Positions 1,126 through 23,956 of a DNA stretch of 43,167 nucleotides are shown piece by piece. This stretch comes from a virus (taxonomy: Duplodnaviria > Caudoviricetes), in IMG/VR virus record IMGVR_UViG_3300025381_000028, positions 1 through 43,167 of that record, one strand, 5' to 3'. Each line of letters starts with the position of its first letter. The stretch's first letter is position 1. A program made the translations under genes and the position numbers. Below the pieces are notes generated by a model that was not told where the DNA came from, searched no databases, and saw nothing but the letters and a program-made list of their open reading frames with translations.

Positions 1126-1562
1126 CTGATTGGAATAAACGATTTCTAGAACTTGCAAAGCATATTTCAACTTGGAGCAAAGACCCAAGTCGACAGATTG
1201 GTGCTGTAATTGTCGGTGGTGATCGTCAGATTCTTTCAGTAGGATATAATGGATTTCCTCGAGGAATTAAAGATGATTCTAGACTTCTTGATAGAGAAAC
1301 CAAGTATACTCTGATTGTTCATGCTGAGATGAATGCTATATACAATGCAACATATAATGGAATCAAGCTTGAAGGCTCGACATTGTATGTAACTGGATTG
1401 CCTGTATGCTCTGATTGTGCTAAGGGTGTAATCCAAGTAGGTATTAAAAAGGTAGTTCTTCCAAAGGATATTGATCTTTCTAAGAATTCTCTTTGGACAG
1501 AATCTTGGTATAAATCTTGTAAAATGTTTACTGATGCTGGTGTTGAGTGGGAATTTGCATGA
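1122..1562 (+). CDS. cd: dCMP deaminase
   Basis: SKDPSRQIGAVIV, GYNGFP, HAEMNA and PVCSDC zinc motifs. Confidence 0.95.
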   Translation: MTDWNKRFLELAKHISTWSKDPSRQIGAVIVGGDRQILSVGYNGFPRGIKDDSRLLDRETKYTLIVHAEMNAIYNATYNGIKLEGSTLYVTGLPVCSDCAKGVIQVGIKKVVLPKDIDLSKNSLWTESWYKSCKMFTDAGVEWEFA

Positions 1563-2797
1563 AGATTGCGGTTATCTTAGGACGTGGTATTGAGGGTTGC
1601 GGTGTAACTCGTAATGCTATTGAGTTTGTTAGACATTATCCAAATTCAAAGGTTTTTGCTATCAATGATAAGAAGTGGCCTCGCCACAATTCTTTGAAGC
1701 TTGATGCTAAGCTTTTTAATTGTGCAACTCATGCTGAGATGCTGGCTATTGCTAATGAAATTAATAAGGACTTTGAAGCTGTAGTTGTATACTCTGTTCC
1801 TTCTCTTAAGCACAGTGATGAATGTGTTAATAATTTTGTTGAGCTTCTAACTCTTATTAAGCATCCTAAGTCAATGATCCAAGTCGATCATAACAATGCA
1901 TCTATTATTCGTAATGCACGTCTTGCAGATGTTTGTAATGCAATGGATCTTATTATGACTCATTCACTTCATGGTGCATTTGCTGGTTGGTGTGAAAAGA
2001 ATAATGTATCAACTCCTTTGACTACCATGGGTGTTGGTTTTGATTATGAAGCACATAAGACAAAGTGGTGGAAGCCTATTGAACAGCAACAATCCAATAT
2101 GGTTAAGTGGATTGGTCGTTGTGCTATGTGGAAAGGTCCCGTTGAAATTGTTAAGTTGCATAATGATTACCTAAGGCAGCATAACTTTATTACGACTCTG
2201 GAAGGTCTCGAAGCTTCTGTGCAAAGTCTTCTTGTGACCCATGAAGACGGTTTTAAGAAATCTATCAAGCGGGATGTACAAGAATATATTCGTGGTAGAA
2301 ATCGTGCACTTGCTAGAAATCATTATAATAAAGAAGTTCCAGGTTCTGCTCCATATCTTTATCCTGACTTCAAGAATGAAGATTGTATGGATAGACTTTC
2401 TCGTTCCGCATTTGGTTCAGATCTTTATAACCTGAAGCCTCAGTATTATGGTAATAATATCGAGTATTGTCATGCTGAAGTTATTGCATGTGGTACTGTT
2501 CCTATTTTTCATAAGCATTTTGGTGATCACATTATTCATCCTAAGACTGGTAATCCAGCAACTCAAGATGATACCGGTGTAATTTGGTATAATGCTCAAA
2601 ATCCAGAAGAAACTGCTAACCAAATTCTTAACGTATATAATAATATGACTCTTCGAGATGAGATGCGAAATAAGGCTTTTGAATACTGGAAAGGTCATTC
2701 AGATTCAAGCATAGTCTTTACGGATATAATCAAGAAAGTTACAACTGCTAAGAAGCATGAAAAAATTAGTCTTAATCTAGAAAGGTTCTTTTCTTGA
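1559..2797 (+). CDS. agt: DNA alpha-glucosyltransferase-like (GT-B)
   Basis: GRGIEGCGVT, WIGRxxxWKG, EGLE, EYxHxExxACGTVPIF match T4 alpha-glucosyltransferase; start moved to ATG 1559 (ATGA overlap with cd stop). Confidence 0.88.
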   Translation: MKIAVILGRGIEGCGVTRNAIEFVRHYPNSKVFAINDKKWPRHNSLKLDAKLFNCATHAEMLAIANEINKDFEAVVVYSVPSLKHSDECVNNFVELLTLIKHPKSMIQVDHNNASIIRNARLADVCNAMDLIMTHSLHGAFAGWCEKNNVSTPLTTMGVGFDYEAHKTKWWKPIEQQQSNMVKWIGRCAMWKGPVEIVKLHNDYLRQHNFITTLEGLEASVQSLLVTHEDGFKKSIKRDVQEYIRGRNRALARNHYNKEVPGSAPYLYPDFKNEDCMDRLSRSAFGSDLYNLKPQYYGNNIEYCHAEVIACGTVPIFHKHFGDHIIHPKTGNPATQDDTGVIWYNAQNPEETANQILNVYNNMTLRDEMRNKAFEYWKGHSDSSIVFTDIIKKVTTAKKHEKISLNLERFFS

Positions 2798-4020
2798 ATT
2801 ATACACACGCATCAATTATTCCACTTATCGGTGGTGTTGCCCTAGCCCAGCATGAAGATAGCGGCCAAGCTCCTGAGTATATGATGACATATGAAGGCTT
2901 TCAAGCTAATGAAAGTCATATTCTTAATCATTATAGAAATGCTTATAATGTTGAGATGCCTTATTATTATCTCGATGCATTAGAACAGCCTAAGCTTAAA
3001 AGCGTAGATGTAGTTAATAGTGTGTGTCCTTGTGCTGGACTTTCACAGTTATCCGCAGGATTTGGTGATCACAACCAAAACAATCAATGGATGATTAAGA
3101 CTGCAACTTATGTTTTAGGTACTCTTAAGCCTCGTGTATTCTGGGGAGAAAATGCTCCAGGATTTGCTGGAAAGATTGGTCAAAATGTAAGAAATACCCT
3201 ATATAAGATTGGTAGGGATAATGGTTATACTATGTCGGTTTATAGAACTCGGTCTCTATTACATGGTACACCTCAAGTTCGCGAAAGATCTTTCTATTTC
3301 TTTTGGAAAGAAACTGATAAGACACCTTTACTTGGTTATTTTAATAGACCATGGACTAAGATTGAAGATCTTATTCGCAATGTAAAAGCAAATTCTCAAA
3401 TGGAACCTATTAATCATAGAATTCCATCAGAATCAGATCCATATTATCGCTTTATCTTAGAAGAAGTTTTTGGCGGAATCTCACATAGAGAATTCTCAAA
3501 CGAAAAGTTAGGATTTCTTCGAGTTAGAAGTAATGATGTATTCTCGTTTATTGAATCTCAAGGTTATAGTTATAATCGGGTTGCTGATTGGCTAAAGTCT
3601 AAAGGTTATGAGCGTGAATATGAAAAGTGCATGTATAAGTATGATAAGCTTCAGTCTGGTAAAAATATCATGCGCCGCGGAACAATTATTCCTAAGGATT
3701 ACATTGGTGCTTTCGTAGGACATTATCCTACATGTTTAACCCATCCAGATGAAGATAGATATATCACATATCGTGAAGCCATGTCAATTATGGGTATGCC
3801 AGAAAACTTTGAATTACTAAATCCAAAGAAAAGCTATAATCATATTTGTCAAAGCGTTCCAGTAAAGACTGCTTTAGATATGTGCTCAGAAATCTCAAAA
3901 TATCTCAATGGAGAACTTGAGATGATTAACTCTACATACACTTATCAGTACAATCATAGTCAAACACACGAGATTGAATCTGATGAACCCACACTCACAT
4001 TAGAAAACTTTTTTAATTAA
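2794..4020 (+). CDS. C5-cytosine DNA methyltransferase-fold protein with atypical cofactor motifs
   Basis: Motif IV CPCAGLS, VI GENAPG, VIII PQVRER, IX RYITYREAMSIMGMPENF; motif I reads IPLIGG and motif X reads ICQSVP; TTG start overlapping agt stop. Confidence 0.85.
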   Translation: MNYTHASIIPLIGGVALAQHEDSGQAPEYMMTYEGFQANESHILNHYRNAYNVEMPYYYLDALEQPKLKSVDVVNSVCPCAGLSQLSAGFGDHNQNNQWMIKTATYVLGTLKPRVFWGENAPGFAGKIGQNVRNTLYKIGRDNGYTMSVYRTRSLLHGTPQVRERSFYFFWKETDKTPLLGYFNRPWTKIEDLIRNVKANSQMEPINHRIPSESDPYYRFILEEVFGGISHREFSNEKLGFLRVRSNDVFSFIESQGYSYNRVADWLKSKGYEREYEKCMYKYDKLQSGKNIMRRGTIIPKDYIGAFVGHYPTCLTHPDEDRYITYREAMSIMGMPENFELLNPKKSYNHICQSVPVKTALDMCSEISKYLNGELEMINSTYTYQYNHSQTHEIESDEPTLTLENFFN

Positions 4021-16396: not shown

Positions 16397-16473
16397 GACT
16401 ACGTAGCTCAGTTGGATAGAGCAACAGCCTTCTAAGCTGTGGGTCGCTGGTTCGAATCCAGCCGTGGTCGCCA
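16397..16473 (+). tRNA. tRNA-Arg(UCU)
   Basis: Full cloverleaf; ACAGC-CTTCTAA-GCTGT anticodon arm; GGTTCGAATCC; encoded CCA. Confidence 0.97.
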
Positions 16474-16477
16474 TTAT

Positions 16478-16567
16478 GGAAGCGTGACCGAGTGGTTTAA
16501 GGTACTGGTCTTGAAAACCAGCGAGGGTGAAAATCCTCCGTGAGTTCGAATCTCACCGCTTCCGCCA
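16478..16567 (+). tRNA. tRNA-Ser(UGA)
   Basis: GGAAGCG/CGCTTCC acceptor, CTGGT-CTTGAAA-ACCAG, long variable arm, G73, CCA. Confidence 0.97.
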
Positions 16568-18016: not shown

Positions 18017-19021
18017 ATGTATAAGTTTAAGAGTACTGAAGTAGAACTTGATTATGATGATGTTTTGATTTGTCCTAATTATAGGTCGCATATTAATTCT
18101 AGATCAGAAGTTAGTCTTGTAAAGAAGTTTACATTTAAGCATTCTGGTTTTTGTTATGAAACTGTTCCAATTATTGCTGCTAATATGAATGGTATTGGAA
18201 CAAAGCATATGGCTGAAGCAATGGCTTATCATACTTGTATGGTAGCTTATACTAAGACAGTTTCTCCAAATGCGTACTCTTACAATAATACTTTTTATAC
18301 TATTGGTGTCAATGAAGCTTTAACTGATATTCTTAATAAGACACCAAATTTTATCAATGTTGATATTGCAAATGGACATATGATTGCTCTTCTTAATAGA
18401 GTAAGAGAACTCCGTCAGCTATTTCCCATGTCAGTTATTATGGCTGGAAATGTTGTCAGCGGATATATGACCACTCAGCTTATTGATGCTGGAGCAGATA
18501 TTGTAAAGGTTGGTATTGGCCCTGGTTCAGTATGTACGACTCGTCTCAAGACTGGAGTCGGTCGACCACAACTTAGTGCTATTGCTGAATGTGCTGAAGC
18601 TGCTCAAAAGATGGGCGCTCATATTTGTGCTGATGGTGGATGCAAGAATCCCGGTGATGTCTCAAAGGCCCTTGCTGCTGGTGCTGACTTTGTAATGCTC
18701 GGTGGTATGCTTGCTGGTCATGAAGAAGGACTTGATGATCTTACTTCTGAAATGGTTTGGAATGCTAAAATCAAAGAATATGAAATTCATTTTTATGGAT
18801 CTTCTTCTAAACAAGCAATGGGCACTGTTGCAGAATATAGAACTGATGAAGGCAAGACAGTAAAGATTAAATATAGAGGTTCTGTAAAGAATACTATGCA
18901 AGATATTCTTGGCGGTGTTCGTTCAGCATGCTCTTATGTTGGTGCAAGTAATCTTGAAGAATTTAGGTATGCAACTGTTTTTGTAAGAGTAAATAATACA
19001 CATAATAGGGTTTTTGGTTAA
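18017..19021 (+). CDS. guaC: GMP reductase
   Basis: [66 protein letters not shown]; no CBS domains. Confidence 0.92.
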
Positions 19022-19029
19022 AATAACTA

Positions 19030-19058
19030 TTGACATTTAATTACAAATATATTATATT
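19030..19058 (+). promoter_or_regulatory. Sigma70-like promoter
   Basis: TTGACA-N17-TATATT. Confidence 0.7.
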
Positions 19059-19069
19059 AAGGATATACA

Positions 19070-19225
19070 ATGCAAACACTTTCAAAGGTTGTACAAATCT
19101 GGAATCTGAAAGCTAAGCTTCAAGAAATGGTAGATATGGGTGCACCACCAAAAGAAATTGAAAAGCTAGAAGAAGATATTATATCTCTTCAAACTGATAA
19201 TCTAAGTATTTTTGACGAAGACTAA
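19070..19225 (+). CDS. Small hypothetical protein (51 aa, not in ORF track)
   Basis: AAGGA SD; MQTLSKVVQIWNLKAKLQEM...IFDED. Confidence 0.65.
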   Translation: MQTLSKVVQIWNLKAKLQEMVDMGAPPKEIEKLEEDIISLQTDNLSIFDED

Positions 19226-19228
19226 ATA
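19221..19228 (+). promoter_or_regulatory. Late promoter variant preceding RNA cluster
   Basis: ACTAAATA 3 nt before the structured RNA; same variant occurs at 28776-28783. Confidence 0.55.
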
Positions 19229-19231
19229 GAA

Positions 19232-19396
19232 TTGCTGGGTCCGAGGCGAAGATCGCAAGACCCTAACTACCGAGGGATAGCAGCACCCTAGCAATAGTGC
19301 ACCGCACTGATAAGGCGGGAGTGGCGCAACCACGAAGGCACAGTCTAGGGGGACAGGTTCCGACTAGTCCTTAAACGTGATGGTAGTACCCAGCAA
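19232..19396 (+). ncRNA. Unidentified ~165-nt structured RNA
   Basis: GC-rich, non-coding; closed by TTGCTGGGT/ACCCAGCAA; inner ACTACC/GGTAGT; several hairpins; ends 3 nt before a tRNA. Confidence 0.75.
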
Positions 19397-19399
19397 CAT

Positions 19400-19490
19400 A
19401 GCGAGATGGCAGAGTGGCTGAATGCGGCGGTCTTGAAAACCGTTCTGGGTGATGAGCCCAGCGGGGGTTCAAATCCCTCTCTCGCTGCCA
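19400..19490 (+). tRNA. tRNA-Ser(UGA), second and divergent copy
   Basis: AGCGAGA/TCTCGCT acceptor, GCGGT-CTTGAAA-ACCGT, long variable arm, G73, CCA. Confidence 0.92.
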
Positions 19491-19495
19491 ATTAT

Positions 19496-19576
19496 CGGAG
19501 GCAGGCTGCGTGGAGCAGGAGGTAGGAGTCCATACCTACATATCTCAAGTCTGGTTCAAATCCAGGACCTCCGCCA
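19496..19576 (+). tRNA. Aberrant tRNA-like RNA (anticodon ambiguous, CCA or CAT)
   Basis: Good T-arm TCTGG-TTCAAAT-CCAGG and terminal CCA, but short acceptor stem and 8-nt anticodon loop GTAGG-AGTCCATA-CCTAC. Confidence 0.6.
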
Positions 19577-19583
19577 ATATTAT

Positions 19584-19703
19584 GTCAGTGGAGCCCATGT
19601 AGTCATGGGATTGGATTTAAGGTTGCGTCAAAGTGTGTGAGTCGGGAACCCTAGCATGTCACACCCCAAACTATCCGGGTCTACGTCCGGACCACTGGCG
19701 CCA
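19584..19703 (+). ncRNA. 120-nt tRNA-like RNA with expanded central domain
   Basis: 8-bp acceptor GTCAGTGG/CCACTGGC + G + CCA; 6-bp/4-nt D-arm; TCCGG/CCGGA T-like arm; no canonical anticodon arm. Confidence 0.7.
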
Positions 19704-19705
19704 TA

Positions 19706-19713
19706 TATAAATA
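19706..19713 (+). promoter_or_regulatory. T4-type late promoter for tmRNA
   Basis: TATAAATA. Confidence 0.75.
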
Positions 19714-22909: not shown

Positions 22910-22920
22910 ATAACTATGTT

Positions 22921-22993
22921 GCGGTATTTCTCCTGGGAGAGGACTCAGCCTTCCAAGCTGACGGAACCGGTTCGAATCCGATATACCGCTCCA
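22921..22993 (+). tRNA. tRNA-Gly(UCC) with atypical D-arm
   Basis: GCGGTAT/ATACCGC acceptor, U73, CCA; TCAGC-CTTCCAA-GCTGA; GGTTCGAATCC. Confidence 0.88.
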
Positions 22994-23038
22994 AATCATA
23001 CACTGCTCATACAACAAACATATAAGGAAATACATACA

Positions 23039-23956
23039 ATGCCTCAAGATTTTGCATCACTAAAGCGTTCGAGCGACTCTTCTCTTTCTAAGCTCACTAA
23101 GGAGCTTGAAAAGATCGGCGCTCCTAATACTAAGGCTTCTGATGAAGACCGTTTCTGGAAGCCAGAAGTAGATAAGGCCGGTAACGGTTCAGCTACAATC
23201 CGCTTCCTTCCGGCTCCTTCTGGAGAAGATCTGCCCTTCATTAGAATCTGGGATCATGGATTCCAGGGTCCTACTGGTAAGTGGTATATTGAAAACTCCC
23301 TGACTACAATTAATCAGCCTGACCCTGTTGCAGAATATAATTCTCAACTGTGGAATATCTCGGATGATGATAATTCTCCGACACGTAAGCAAGCTCGCGA
23401 TCAAAAGCGGCGCCTGCATTTTATTTCTAATATTCTGGTTGTCAAGGATCCTGCTCATCCTGAAAATGAAGGAAAGGTATTCCTTTATAAGTATGGTAAG
23501 AAGATCTTTGATAAGATCAAGGATCTGATGCATCCTCAATTTGAAGATGAAGAAGCCATTGATCCTTTCAATATGTGGACTGGCGCAAACTTCAAGCTTA
23601 AGATTCGTAAGTTTGAAGGCTATCGCAACTATGATAAGTCTGAATTTTCTCCTGCAAGTGCAATTTCAGATGATGATTCTGAACTTGAAAAGATCTGGAA
23701 TAAGTGTTATTCTCTGAACACTTTCCTTGATCCTAGTAACTTCAAGTCTTATGATGATCTCAAGACTAAGCTTAATCTTGTTCTTGATTTGAATAAGGAT
23801 CAACCTAGGCAAGCTCTGCCTACTGCATCTGCTCCTAAGATTAGAGAAAAGGCAGTCGAAAGTCTTCCTGAATCCTCAACACCACCTTGGTCTGTAGAGG
23901 AAGATGAAGATATGTCTTACTTTGCAAAACTTAAGGCGATTGCTGAAGAAGACTAA
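23039..23956 (+). CDS. gp32: Single-stranded DNA-binding protein
   Basis: DRFWKP, IRFLP, HGFQG..GKWYIEN, YGKKIFDKI, GANFKLK, NYDKSEF, acidic tail; start ATG 23039 after TAAGGA. Confidence 0.97.
   Translation: MPQDFASLKRSSDSSLSKLTKELEKIGAPNTKASDEDRFWKPEVDKAGNGSATIRFLPAPSGEDLPFIRIWDHGFQGPTGKWYIENSLTTINQPDPVAEYNSQLWNISDDDNSPTRKQARDQKRRLHFISNILVVKDPAHPENEGKVFLYKYGKKIFDKIKDLMHPQFEDEEAIDPFNMWTGANFKLKIRKFEGYRNYDKSEFSPASAISDDDSELEKIWNKCYSLNTFLDPSNFKSYDDLKTKLNLVLDLNKDQPRQALPTASAPKIREKAVESLPESSTPPWSVEEDEDMSYFAKLKAIAEED

Follow-up and report, generated by a model that had tools for sequence, protein, structure and literature searches.

A candidate family of structured RNAs at the head of RNA-gene clusters in T4-like freshwater phages

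The DNA analysed here, which we call the window, is the whole of IMG/VR virus record IMGVR_UViG_3300025381_000028 (43,167 bp, estimated completeness 25%), a fragment of a T4-like freshwater myovirus. It carries a structured RNA of 165 nt, element A, that opens a GC-rich island of RNA genes and that a sequence-only reading of the window had singled out as an RNA of no recognisable class. We find that the sequence is conserved in diverged homologues, that its seven helices (P1 to P7, joined by junctions J; Table 1) are retained through compensatory changes, and that it matches no catalogued family. These data indicate that element A is a member of a previously uncatalogued family of structured RNAs, of about 160-180 nt, in T4-like freshwater phages. 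In the reading that we prefer, to which we give a probability of roughly 0.55, an RNA-only operon would yield element A first, and RNase P, in cutting at the adjoining tRNA, would free it as a stable RNA that acts in trans.

Relatives and fold of element A

Homologues were gathered by pattern scans of the IMG/VR, metagenome and genome_contigs collections. Because these large collections were scanned with exact patterns only, more distant members may have been missed. Apart from the window, the family comprises 10 contigs from IMG/VR and 2 from metagenomes, and all records holding its members are genome fragments. Its members fall into four diverged types with pairwise identities between types of 61-82%: A1 in the window (G000) and in a second phage (G001), A2 in G051, A3 in G053, and A4 in G052. 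Among the contigs annotated, all four types occur in T4-like phages. G001 was found by a pattern in which the loops of P5 and P6 were fixed and the stems could vary; on metagenome contigs the same pattern yielded a third A1 haplotype, its only other match being the window itself. Logan contigs from four DNA runs included one that is common to the window only over 19235-19277 and then diverges. The letters of its loose end led to the diverged homologue A2, and a pattern over the conserved 5' junction led to A3 and A4. A relaxed two-anchor viral pattern returned the same 10 IMG/VR stretches. A covariance model built from A1 alone (R1) scores A3 at 134.9 bits, A2 at 84.4, and A4 at 79.5, and model matches span 79-217 bits across the four types. 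Two pattern matches in genome_contigs were rejected as chance, with stems unpaired and about one match expected.

The sequence-only reading had proposed that covariation be tested on phage homologues, and here the signal is strong in both of the alignments we used. In the alignment fitted to the covariance model, 96.4% of 221 cells are paired and 18 of 39 pairs are compensated; none of 500 shuffles reaches this level, and slid controls give 0-3 compensated pairs as compared with 18. Because a fitted alignment leans towards its own model, a structure-blind MAFFT alignment matters here: 93.6% of its cells are paired, 16 of 36 pairs are compensated, shuffles again reach this in 0 of 500 cases, and slid controls show at most 3. 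Compensated pairs are found in all seven helices (Table 1, counts from the fitted alignment). The clearest example is P2, which reads AUUGGA/UCCAAU in A4 as opposed to ACUACC/GGUAGU, with all four variable pairs compensated, a change that is also visible in the structure-blind alignment. Pairing of P5 falls to 80% in the MAFFT alignment, where its loop is misaligned. G-U pairs fit the plus strand only, and element A is therefore assigned to that strand. Taken together, the alignments indicate that element A encodes a conserved, nested seven-helix fold beyond chance.

In this fold, the 3' strands of P2 and P1 are contiguous. P2 opens onto the hairpin P7 and onto P3-P4, which leads to a three-way junction with the hairpins P5 and P6. 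Several unpaired stretches are nearly invariant. These include J1/2 and the P6 loop (both in Table 1), GAGGGA in J2/3, GAARG after P6, and YUYAAACG in J7/2. Much of this architecture had been anticipated. The sequence, coordinates, and stems that had been listed are all present in the window, and covariation supports the stem ACTACC/GGTAGT (P2) as well as the hairpins CCGC/GCGG, GTGG/CCAC, and GGAC/GTCC (P5, P6, and P7). The proposed closing stem holds over 19233-19240/19388-19395, the outermost pair (19232/19396) being lost in one haplotype. Two elements had to be redrawn. A hairpin GCAC/GTGC at 19283-19300 pairs in only 62.5% of family cells, and for this reason we replace it, together with the pseudoknot CCTAG/CTAGG that had been drawn to its loop, by a nested 6-bp helix, P3, that encloses the 4-bp P4. 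The folding ensemble favours both of these pairings; the structure exactly as first drawn evaluates to -37.3 kcal/mol. A small hairpin within J1/2 (19246-56) was also considered and is unsupported, with only 77.8% of cells paired. A scan of the alignment for further pseudoknots gave no stacked covarying candidate, only weak one-sided hints such as CGC in J1/2 with GCG in the P6 loop.

The fold matches no catalogued RNA family; the sequence-only reading had likewise recognised in it no core of RNase P, SRP, 6S, a riboswitch or a small ribozyme. We searched Rfam 15 (4227 covariance models), judging matches at the gathering score and at E<=10, and found none over 19232-19396 at the gathering score. 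At E<=10 only two models overlap it. One is sX4, at 17.9 bits against a threshold of 70, which reaches no more than the last 9 nt of element A and falls mainly on tRNA-Ser. With element A alone and lax filters there is no meaningful match at E<=10; the second model, scr4677, scores 7.2 bits against a threshold of 41 (E 5.3). Searches of the loci that hold A2, A3, or A4 gave no Rfam 15 match over these types, even at E<=10. The tRNA model does not match element A at E<=10, and ARAGORN, at default or relaxed settings, makes no plausible plus-strand tRNA call within it. Neither A1, A2, nor A4 has a blastn match in 50,697 GenBank phage records, and the rest of the window, searched on both strands, holds no complementarity of at least 11 nt to element A. 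In the passages of the full-text literature that were consulted we met no description of such an RNA; an unnamed RNA is not searchable by name, so we do not claim that it is unpublished.

The family is sparsely distributed among relatives of the phage. Model R1 finds no element A in the whole records of 49 of 50 related phages, and model R2, run over 84 sources (837 kb), finds nothing beyond the four types. Related loci linked to GMP reductase hold only identical copies of element A. At 80 loci upstream of gp32 in relatives (52-69% identity), the transfer-messenger RNA (tmRNA) is kept, and element A, the tRNA-Ser, and the two RNAs that follow it in the window (elements B and C) are absent by blastn, nhmmer, and covariance model. 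Among 118 loci matching a pattern for the tmRNA T-arm, no element A was found by blastn or nhmmer; one of these loci (L098, 632 nt, from the window's own lineage) carries copies of B, C, and the tmRNA.

Cluster context and cassette mobility

The window encodes the T4 replication and late-transcription set (gp43, UvsX, gp41, gp59, gp32, gp45, gp44, gp62, RegA, the late coactivator gp33, and baseplate genes). Related phages treated in the literature have bacteria of the SAR11/LD12 and OM43 types as hosts. Its GC content is about 30-35% overall and about 32% around element A, rising to 45-57% across 19232 to ~20050; element A itself is 55% GC, a composition that, like the comparison of homologues, sets it apart from chance. 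No credible open reading frame (ORF) was found within this island by an ORF check. It consists of element A, a tRNA-Ser, the two tRNA-like RNAs B and C, and a permuted tmRNA, in that order.

A late-promoter variant had been noted immediately before element A, and the comparison between types lends this support. A motif resembling (C/T)ATAA(A/G)TA stops 4-5 nt short of P1 in three of the four types (A1, with its three haplotypes, A2, and A3) and in five of the six distinct sequences, and it is kept even where the flanks further out are unrelated. Besides the copy in the window, it reads CATAAATAT in G001, CATAAATAG both in L212 and in A3, and TATAAGTA in A2. The consensus of T4 late promoters is TATAAATA. 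We infer that the TAAATA-core motif before P1 may act as a promoter, and the window encodes the T4-type coactivator, gp33. An exact copy of TATAAATA lies at 19706-19713, just upstream of the acceptor piece of the tmRNA. Further upstream, a sigma-70-like promoter (19030-19058), recognised by its match to the consensus, is a possible early source of read-through into the island. With both an exact late consensus and a sigma-70-type promoter, transcription of the island may occur early as well as late.

What follows element A differs between types. A canonical tRNA-Ser(UGA) starts 3-4 nt after P1 in G000, G001, and G053 (types A1 and A3), and because of this short distance a 3' end made by RNase P is a reasonable expectation. 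In G053, A3 and the tRNA-Ser are followed by a homologue of element B (nhmmer 1.1e-19), an ORF, and then a permuted tmRNA. A4 heads a cluster with tRNA-Asn, tRNA-Thr, and tRNA-Gly. Given these placements, the family consistently opens clusters of RNA genes. The RNAs that come after A2 or A4 (L236 5556-5808 in G051; L237 4845-4919 (-) in G052) both look tRNA-like by eye. One has the T-arm GUUGGUUCGAGUCCAAC and acceptor-like pairing; the other has a GCGGGUG/CACCCGC acceptor and a 9-nt anticodon-like loop containing CAU. ARAGORN and Rfam call neither.

The companions of element A in the window are themselves unusual. ARAGORN calls element B only at a relaxed threshold, as tRNA-?(tcca), and we suggest that B could be a quadruplet-reading or decoy tRNA. 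It has a G at the expected U33 position; its loop is identical in the G053 homologue (L238 7003-7084 (-)), and the acceptor stem differs there on both strands. Element C, found only in the A1 cassette (G000 and G001), folds into an acceptor-like stem of 8 bp and, where a D-arm would stand, a 6-bp stem capped by a 4-nt loop. It also has a long extra arm and a T-arm-like hairpin whose loop is non-canonical, and G-CCA is encoded at its end. We see no anticodon arm, and neither Rfam nor ARAGORN makes a call. The combination of an 8-bp acceptor and a 6-bp D stem recalls bacterial tRNA-Sec, but no model matches element C. The permuted tmRNA lies upstream of gp33 in the window, with several ORFs intervening; a passage of PMC9004378 describes such a two-piece tmRNA directly upstream of the late coactivator gene in Melnitz/pelagimyophage-type phages.

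Element A, tRNA-Ser, B, and C together form a cassette that G000 and G001 have in common. Over its 475 nt the two copies are 98.3% identical (7 mismatches and 1 gap); only 19233-19707 matches, and the flanks are unrelated at the DNA level. Protein identity between these phages is 58% for gp32, 46% for gp59, and 61% for gp33. For G000 and G001, gp32 is thus 58% identical and element A 97%; for G001 and G053 the values are 72% and 82.5%, and for G000 and G053 they are 55% and 80.6%. G001 is therefore closer to G053 by gp32 and closer to G000 by element A. The window also has two clearly different tRNA-Ser(UGA) genes, at 16478-16567 (region 16397-16567) and at 19400-19490. This incongruence, the sharp boundaries of homology, and the second tRNA-Ser(UGA) lead us to conclude that the 475-nt cassette was transferred laterally, and recently, between distantly related phages, as judged from these sequence comparisons. 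The acceptor stem of the tRNA-Ser at 16478-16567 resembles that of the tRNA-Ser in G053 and G051, and that of the cassette tRNA-Ser does not.

A homing endonuclease may have taken part in this transfer. A reverse ORF of 199 aa in G001 (L211 1129-1728 (-)) is inserted precisely between cassette and tmRNA. Its N terminus carries an IYLY...KYFGKT motif and its C terminus zinc-finger-like repeats, and its nearest named Atlas clusters are GIY-YIG in 10 of 10 cases (score 0.94), which we treat as a lead only. On this lead, the protein is likely a Seg-type GIY-YIG homing endonuclease. In G053, both a NUMOD3 ORF and a gene of the SegE-type GIY-YIG kind lie nearby; BLASTP between the G001 protein and this NUMOD3 ORF is not significant. 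As described in a passage of PMC2330249, SegB drives preferred inheritance of the T4 tRNA region, and parts of PMC13096335 report that SegB homologues are enriched near phage tRNA genes and that phage T6 is helped to evade a defence that cleaves tRNAs when SegB drives the amplification of a tRNA locus.

Other features of the window were also recorded. Auxiliary genes lie at 18017-19021 and 1547-4020. They comprise a gene for an enzyme of the GMP reductase/IMPDH family, just upstream of the RNA island, and a DNA alpha-glucosyltransferase gene that adjoins a C-5 cytosine methylase-like gene, a pair that suggests that the phage DNA is modified. The longest gp32 ORF (22916-23956) overlaps a tRNA-Gly(UCC) at 22921-22993, and its homology to gp32 begins at about residue 45, so that the true start is probably downstream, near 23048. 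The tRNA-Gly just upstream of gp32 is retained in the relatives L129-L133.

Table 1. Features of element A and the surrounding RNA island (window coordinates; compensated, pairs with compensatory changes)
Feature	Position	Strand	Properties and evidence
Sigma-70-like promoter, TTGACA-17-TATATT	19030-19058	+	11/12 consensus matches; best site in scan
51-aa ORF downstream of the sigma-70-like promoter	19070-19225	+	
TAAATA core of T4-late-promoter-like motif (CTAAATAG in the window)	19223-19228	+	4-5 nt before P1
Element A, type A1, 165-nt structured RNA, founding member of the family	19232-19396	+	Covariance model, covariation
RNA cassette, 475 nt (A, tRNA-Ser, B, C)	19233-19707	+	Common to phage G001
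P1, 5' strand, pairs with 19388-19395	19233-19240	+	8 bp, 2 compensated; 97.5% of cells paired
J1/2, 25 nt, almost invariant 5'-side junction, CCGAG..GAAGAUCGCAAGACCCUA	19241-19265	+	Alignments
P2, 5' strand ACUACC, pairs with GGUAGU 19382-19387	19266-19271	+	6 bp, 4 compensated; 100% paired
P3, 5' strand CCCUAG, pairs with CUAGGG 19345-19350	19286-19291	+	6 bp, 2 compensated; 100% paired
P4, 5' strand GUGC, pairs with GCAC 19338-19341	19297-19300	+	4 bp, 3 compensated; 91.7% paired
P5 hairpin, CCGC...GCGG	19302-19318	+	4 bp, 2 compensated; 100% paired in the model-fitted alignment
P6 hairpin, GUGG-CGCAA-CCAC, YGCAA loop kept in four types	19321-19333	+	2/4 pairs compensated
P7 hairpin, GGAC...GUCC, variable loop (16-nt insertion in A4)	19351-19370	+	4 bp, 3 compensated; 100% paired
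J7/2, conserved junction UUAAACG(N)GAU	19371-19381	+	Alignment
tRNA-Ser(UGA), 3-4 nt after P1	19400-19490	+	ARAGORN; Rfam tRNA 57.9 bits
Element B, tRNA-like cloverleaf, 8-nt anticodon loop AGUCCAUA	19496-19577	+	Relaxed ARAGORN, fold
Element C, 120-nt tRNA-like RNA, 3' GCCA	19584-19703	+	Fold
Permuted two-piece tmRNA, tag ANDNGVMEYALAA	19686-20084	+	ARAGORN; Rfam tmRNA_permuted 120 bits, alpha_tmRNA 85.7 bits

Possible roles of element A

If element A is a released, trans-acting RNA, transcription would begin at the foot of P1, from the late-promoter-like motif; alternatively, element A would be processed from read-through transcripts of the sigma-70-like promoter. Cleavage by RNase P at the next tRNA, followed by trimming, would set its 3' end, and element A would persist as a free folded RNA. 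Its invariant junction core could bind a protein, a ligand, or another RNA tied to the takeover of translation by the phage, and the neighbouring homing endonuclease would spread the cassette. A role in the takeover or protection of translation is suggested because the neighbours are a tRNA, tRNA mimics, and a tmRNA, and because the cassette is mobile.

Several points weigh against this reading. Only four types (6 distinct rows) underlie the covariation statistics, and several of the compensatory changes come from single lineages. At -55.2 kcal/mol, the minimum free energy of element A corresponds to z -1.46; an equally good fold is reached by 20 of 200 shuffles, and folding energy is uninformative either way. 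No promoter-like motif lies upstream of A4, and what comes after A2 is some 250 nt of uncalled, structured-looking RNA with no called tRNA. The sequence tails 3' of P1 are unconserved and lack CCA. Action in trans is something that we infer from the lack of a downstream ORF or expression platform and by analogy with other RNAs. The 24 sequencing runs listed for this stretch are all freshwater DNA metagenomes, with RNA runs numbering 0 of 24. For the mobility step, Pfam, PHROGs, and a PDB sequence search make no GIY-YIG call on the 199-aa ORF of G001.

The main rival is that element A acts in cis, as a leader: a riboswitch-like sensor, or a processing or stability element, that controls the output of the downstream tRNA, tRNA-like RNAs, and tmRNA, for example by protecting the 5' end or gating the access of RNase P. 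We hold this to be possible, if on the unlikely side. Element A is immediately preceded by a promoter-like motif and in every case directly followed by other RNA genes, and its covarying stems with near-invariant junctions have the classic look of an aptamer; moreover, in the related phage Melnitz, a glutamine riboswitch is placed beside the tmRNA gene in a passage of PMC9004378. However, no expression platform is visible, nor any terminator-like hairpin between P1 and the tRNA that begins 3-4 nt on; glnA and all other Rfam riboswitch models fail at E<=10; the downstream partner varies by type (tRNA-Ser, a non-canonical tRNA-like RNA, or an uncalled RNA); and 25 invariant junction bases are more than simple stabilisation of the 5' end would require. 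More doubtful is the proposal that element A is the effector of an anti-defence cassette mobilised by a homing endonuclease, together with the tRNA-Ser and the mimics, or that it is a ribozyme or ligand sensor acting on tRNA maturation. If the anti-defence version were true, element A, the tRNA-Ser, and the two tRNA mimics would neutralise or decoy a host system that attacks tRNAs or the translation machinery, and either version would make element A a functional RNA class without known relatives.

We consider it improbable that element A is a new ribozyme in its own right, one that frees its own 5' end from early read-through by self-cleavage or acts on the neighbouring tRNA-like RNAs. Its complex fold and highly conserved unpaired nucleotides would suit a ribozyme, and transcripts from the sigma-70-like promoter would need a 5' cut at ~19232; the promoter-like motif at the foot of P1, however, makes such a cut unnecessary in three of the four types. 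In addition, no Rfam ribozyme model matches (hammerhead, twister, pistol, hatchet, HDV-like), all helices are nested, where HDV-like ribozymes have double pseudoknots, and a hammerhead-like CUGAUAA in the P5 loop is unconserved in A2-A4. Still harder to credit is a module of the Y-RNA-like or tRNA-mimic kind, with a Ro60/Rsr-type or tRNA-handling protein as its partner. The lead for the Y-RNA idea, which we rejected, was that the 5' GCUGGGUCCGAGG and 3' CCGACUAGUCC of the copy in the window resemble the ends of metazoan Y RNAs. The family conserves the 5' GGGUCCGAG, P1 and P2 together make a coaxial-looking stack of 14 bp whose 3' strand is unbroken, much like the acceptor and T stems of a tRNA, and the neighbours are tRNA mimics. 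But GACUAGUC sits in the variable P7 of A1 and is absent from A2-A4, and the 5' GGGU pairs with the 3'-terminal ACCC (in the covarying P1) and not with GACUAGUC. The 3' end of element A has no CCA, the Y_RNA, YrlA, and tRNA models have no match at E<=10, and TROVE (PF05731) is found in 0 of 5 records, a weak indication, these being only 7-29% complete. The least credible account, which we disfavour, is that element A is a non-functional, decaying remnant of a tRNA or tmRNA hitch-hiking in the cassette. The rarity of the family, its absence from nearly all of the related phage records searched whole, and the unexceptional folding energy would fit decay. Nevertheless, compensatory changes in seven helices together with near-invariant junctions, at 61-82% identity, point to selection on structure, and relaxed ARAGORN and the tRNA model detect no plus-strand tRNA remnant.

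Comparison with known phage RNAs

The T4 tRNA cluster holds two stable RNAs that have been without a known role for fifty years. Annotated as stable RNAs, RNA C (species 1, 139 nt) and RNA D (species 2, 119 nt) lie inside this cluster near segB, a GIY-YIG gene. Like them, element A lies within a T4-type tRNA cluster, on the tRNA strand and with no ORF; it is of a similar size class and would presumably be freed by tRNA-processing enzymes. Homology to rnaC or rnaD was considered and rejected: model R2 has no match in the T4 tRNA region (L217), and the folds differ. RNA C ends in a canonical T-arm and acceptor-like stem, whereas element A has no T-arm, and the two T4 RNAs close their cluster, whereas element A opens its own. 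A passage of PMC3014915 gives the biological role of rnaC and rnaD as unknown.

Element A can also be set beside RNAs of other phages and bacteria. It is modular, similar in size to YrlA and other Y-RNA-like RNAs, and associated, as they are, with tRNA-like modules. Its 5' motif resembles GGUCCGA. No covariance model of the YrlA kind matches it, however, and its putative 3' partner motif is unconserved; the five records noted above, only 7-29% complete, showed no rsr/TROVE gene, which carries little weight. What it has in common with the Melnitz-type glutamine riboswitch, described in part of PMC9004378, is its setting: a structured RNA beside a two-piece tmRNA, in one group of phages and one genome neighbourhood, with the gene for the late coactivator downstream. 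In contrast to that riboswitch, element A is about 3 times larger, is separated from the tmRNA by three RNA genes, shows no visible expression platform, and is not matched by the glnA RNA model.

GOLLD and ROOL, as a passage of PMC5737381 describes them, are orphan non-coding RNAs of complex fold and unknown function, often beside tRNA genes and found in phages and prophages. The likeness to element A is one of context only, both being phage-borne and beside tRNA genes. GOLLD and ROOL are about 3-5 times larger (ROOL averages 581 nt, as compared with 165 nt) and contain pseudoknots, and neither Rfam model matches element A, which, unlike them, is so far confined to T4-like freshwater myoviruses. 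According to a part of PMC13096335, phage tRNA loci and SegB-type endonucleases serve as anti-defence modules; in the window, a cassette that holds the tRNA-Ser and two conserved, non-canonical tRNA mimics adjoins the phage tmRNA. Beside the T4 RNAs and GOLLD/ROOL, element A is a third, unrelated, and compact phage RNA associated with tRNA genes, with a well-defined fold and an almost invariant 25-nt junction, exchanged among phages in an RNA-only cassette. Its size of 165 nt suits probing, structure determination, and pull-downs, through which the role of the extra RNAs in phage tRNA clusters could become directly testable.

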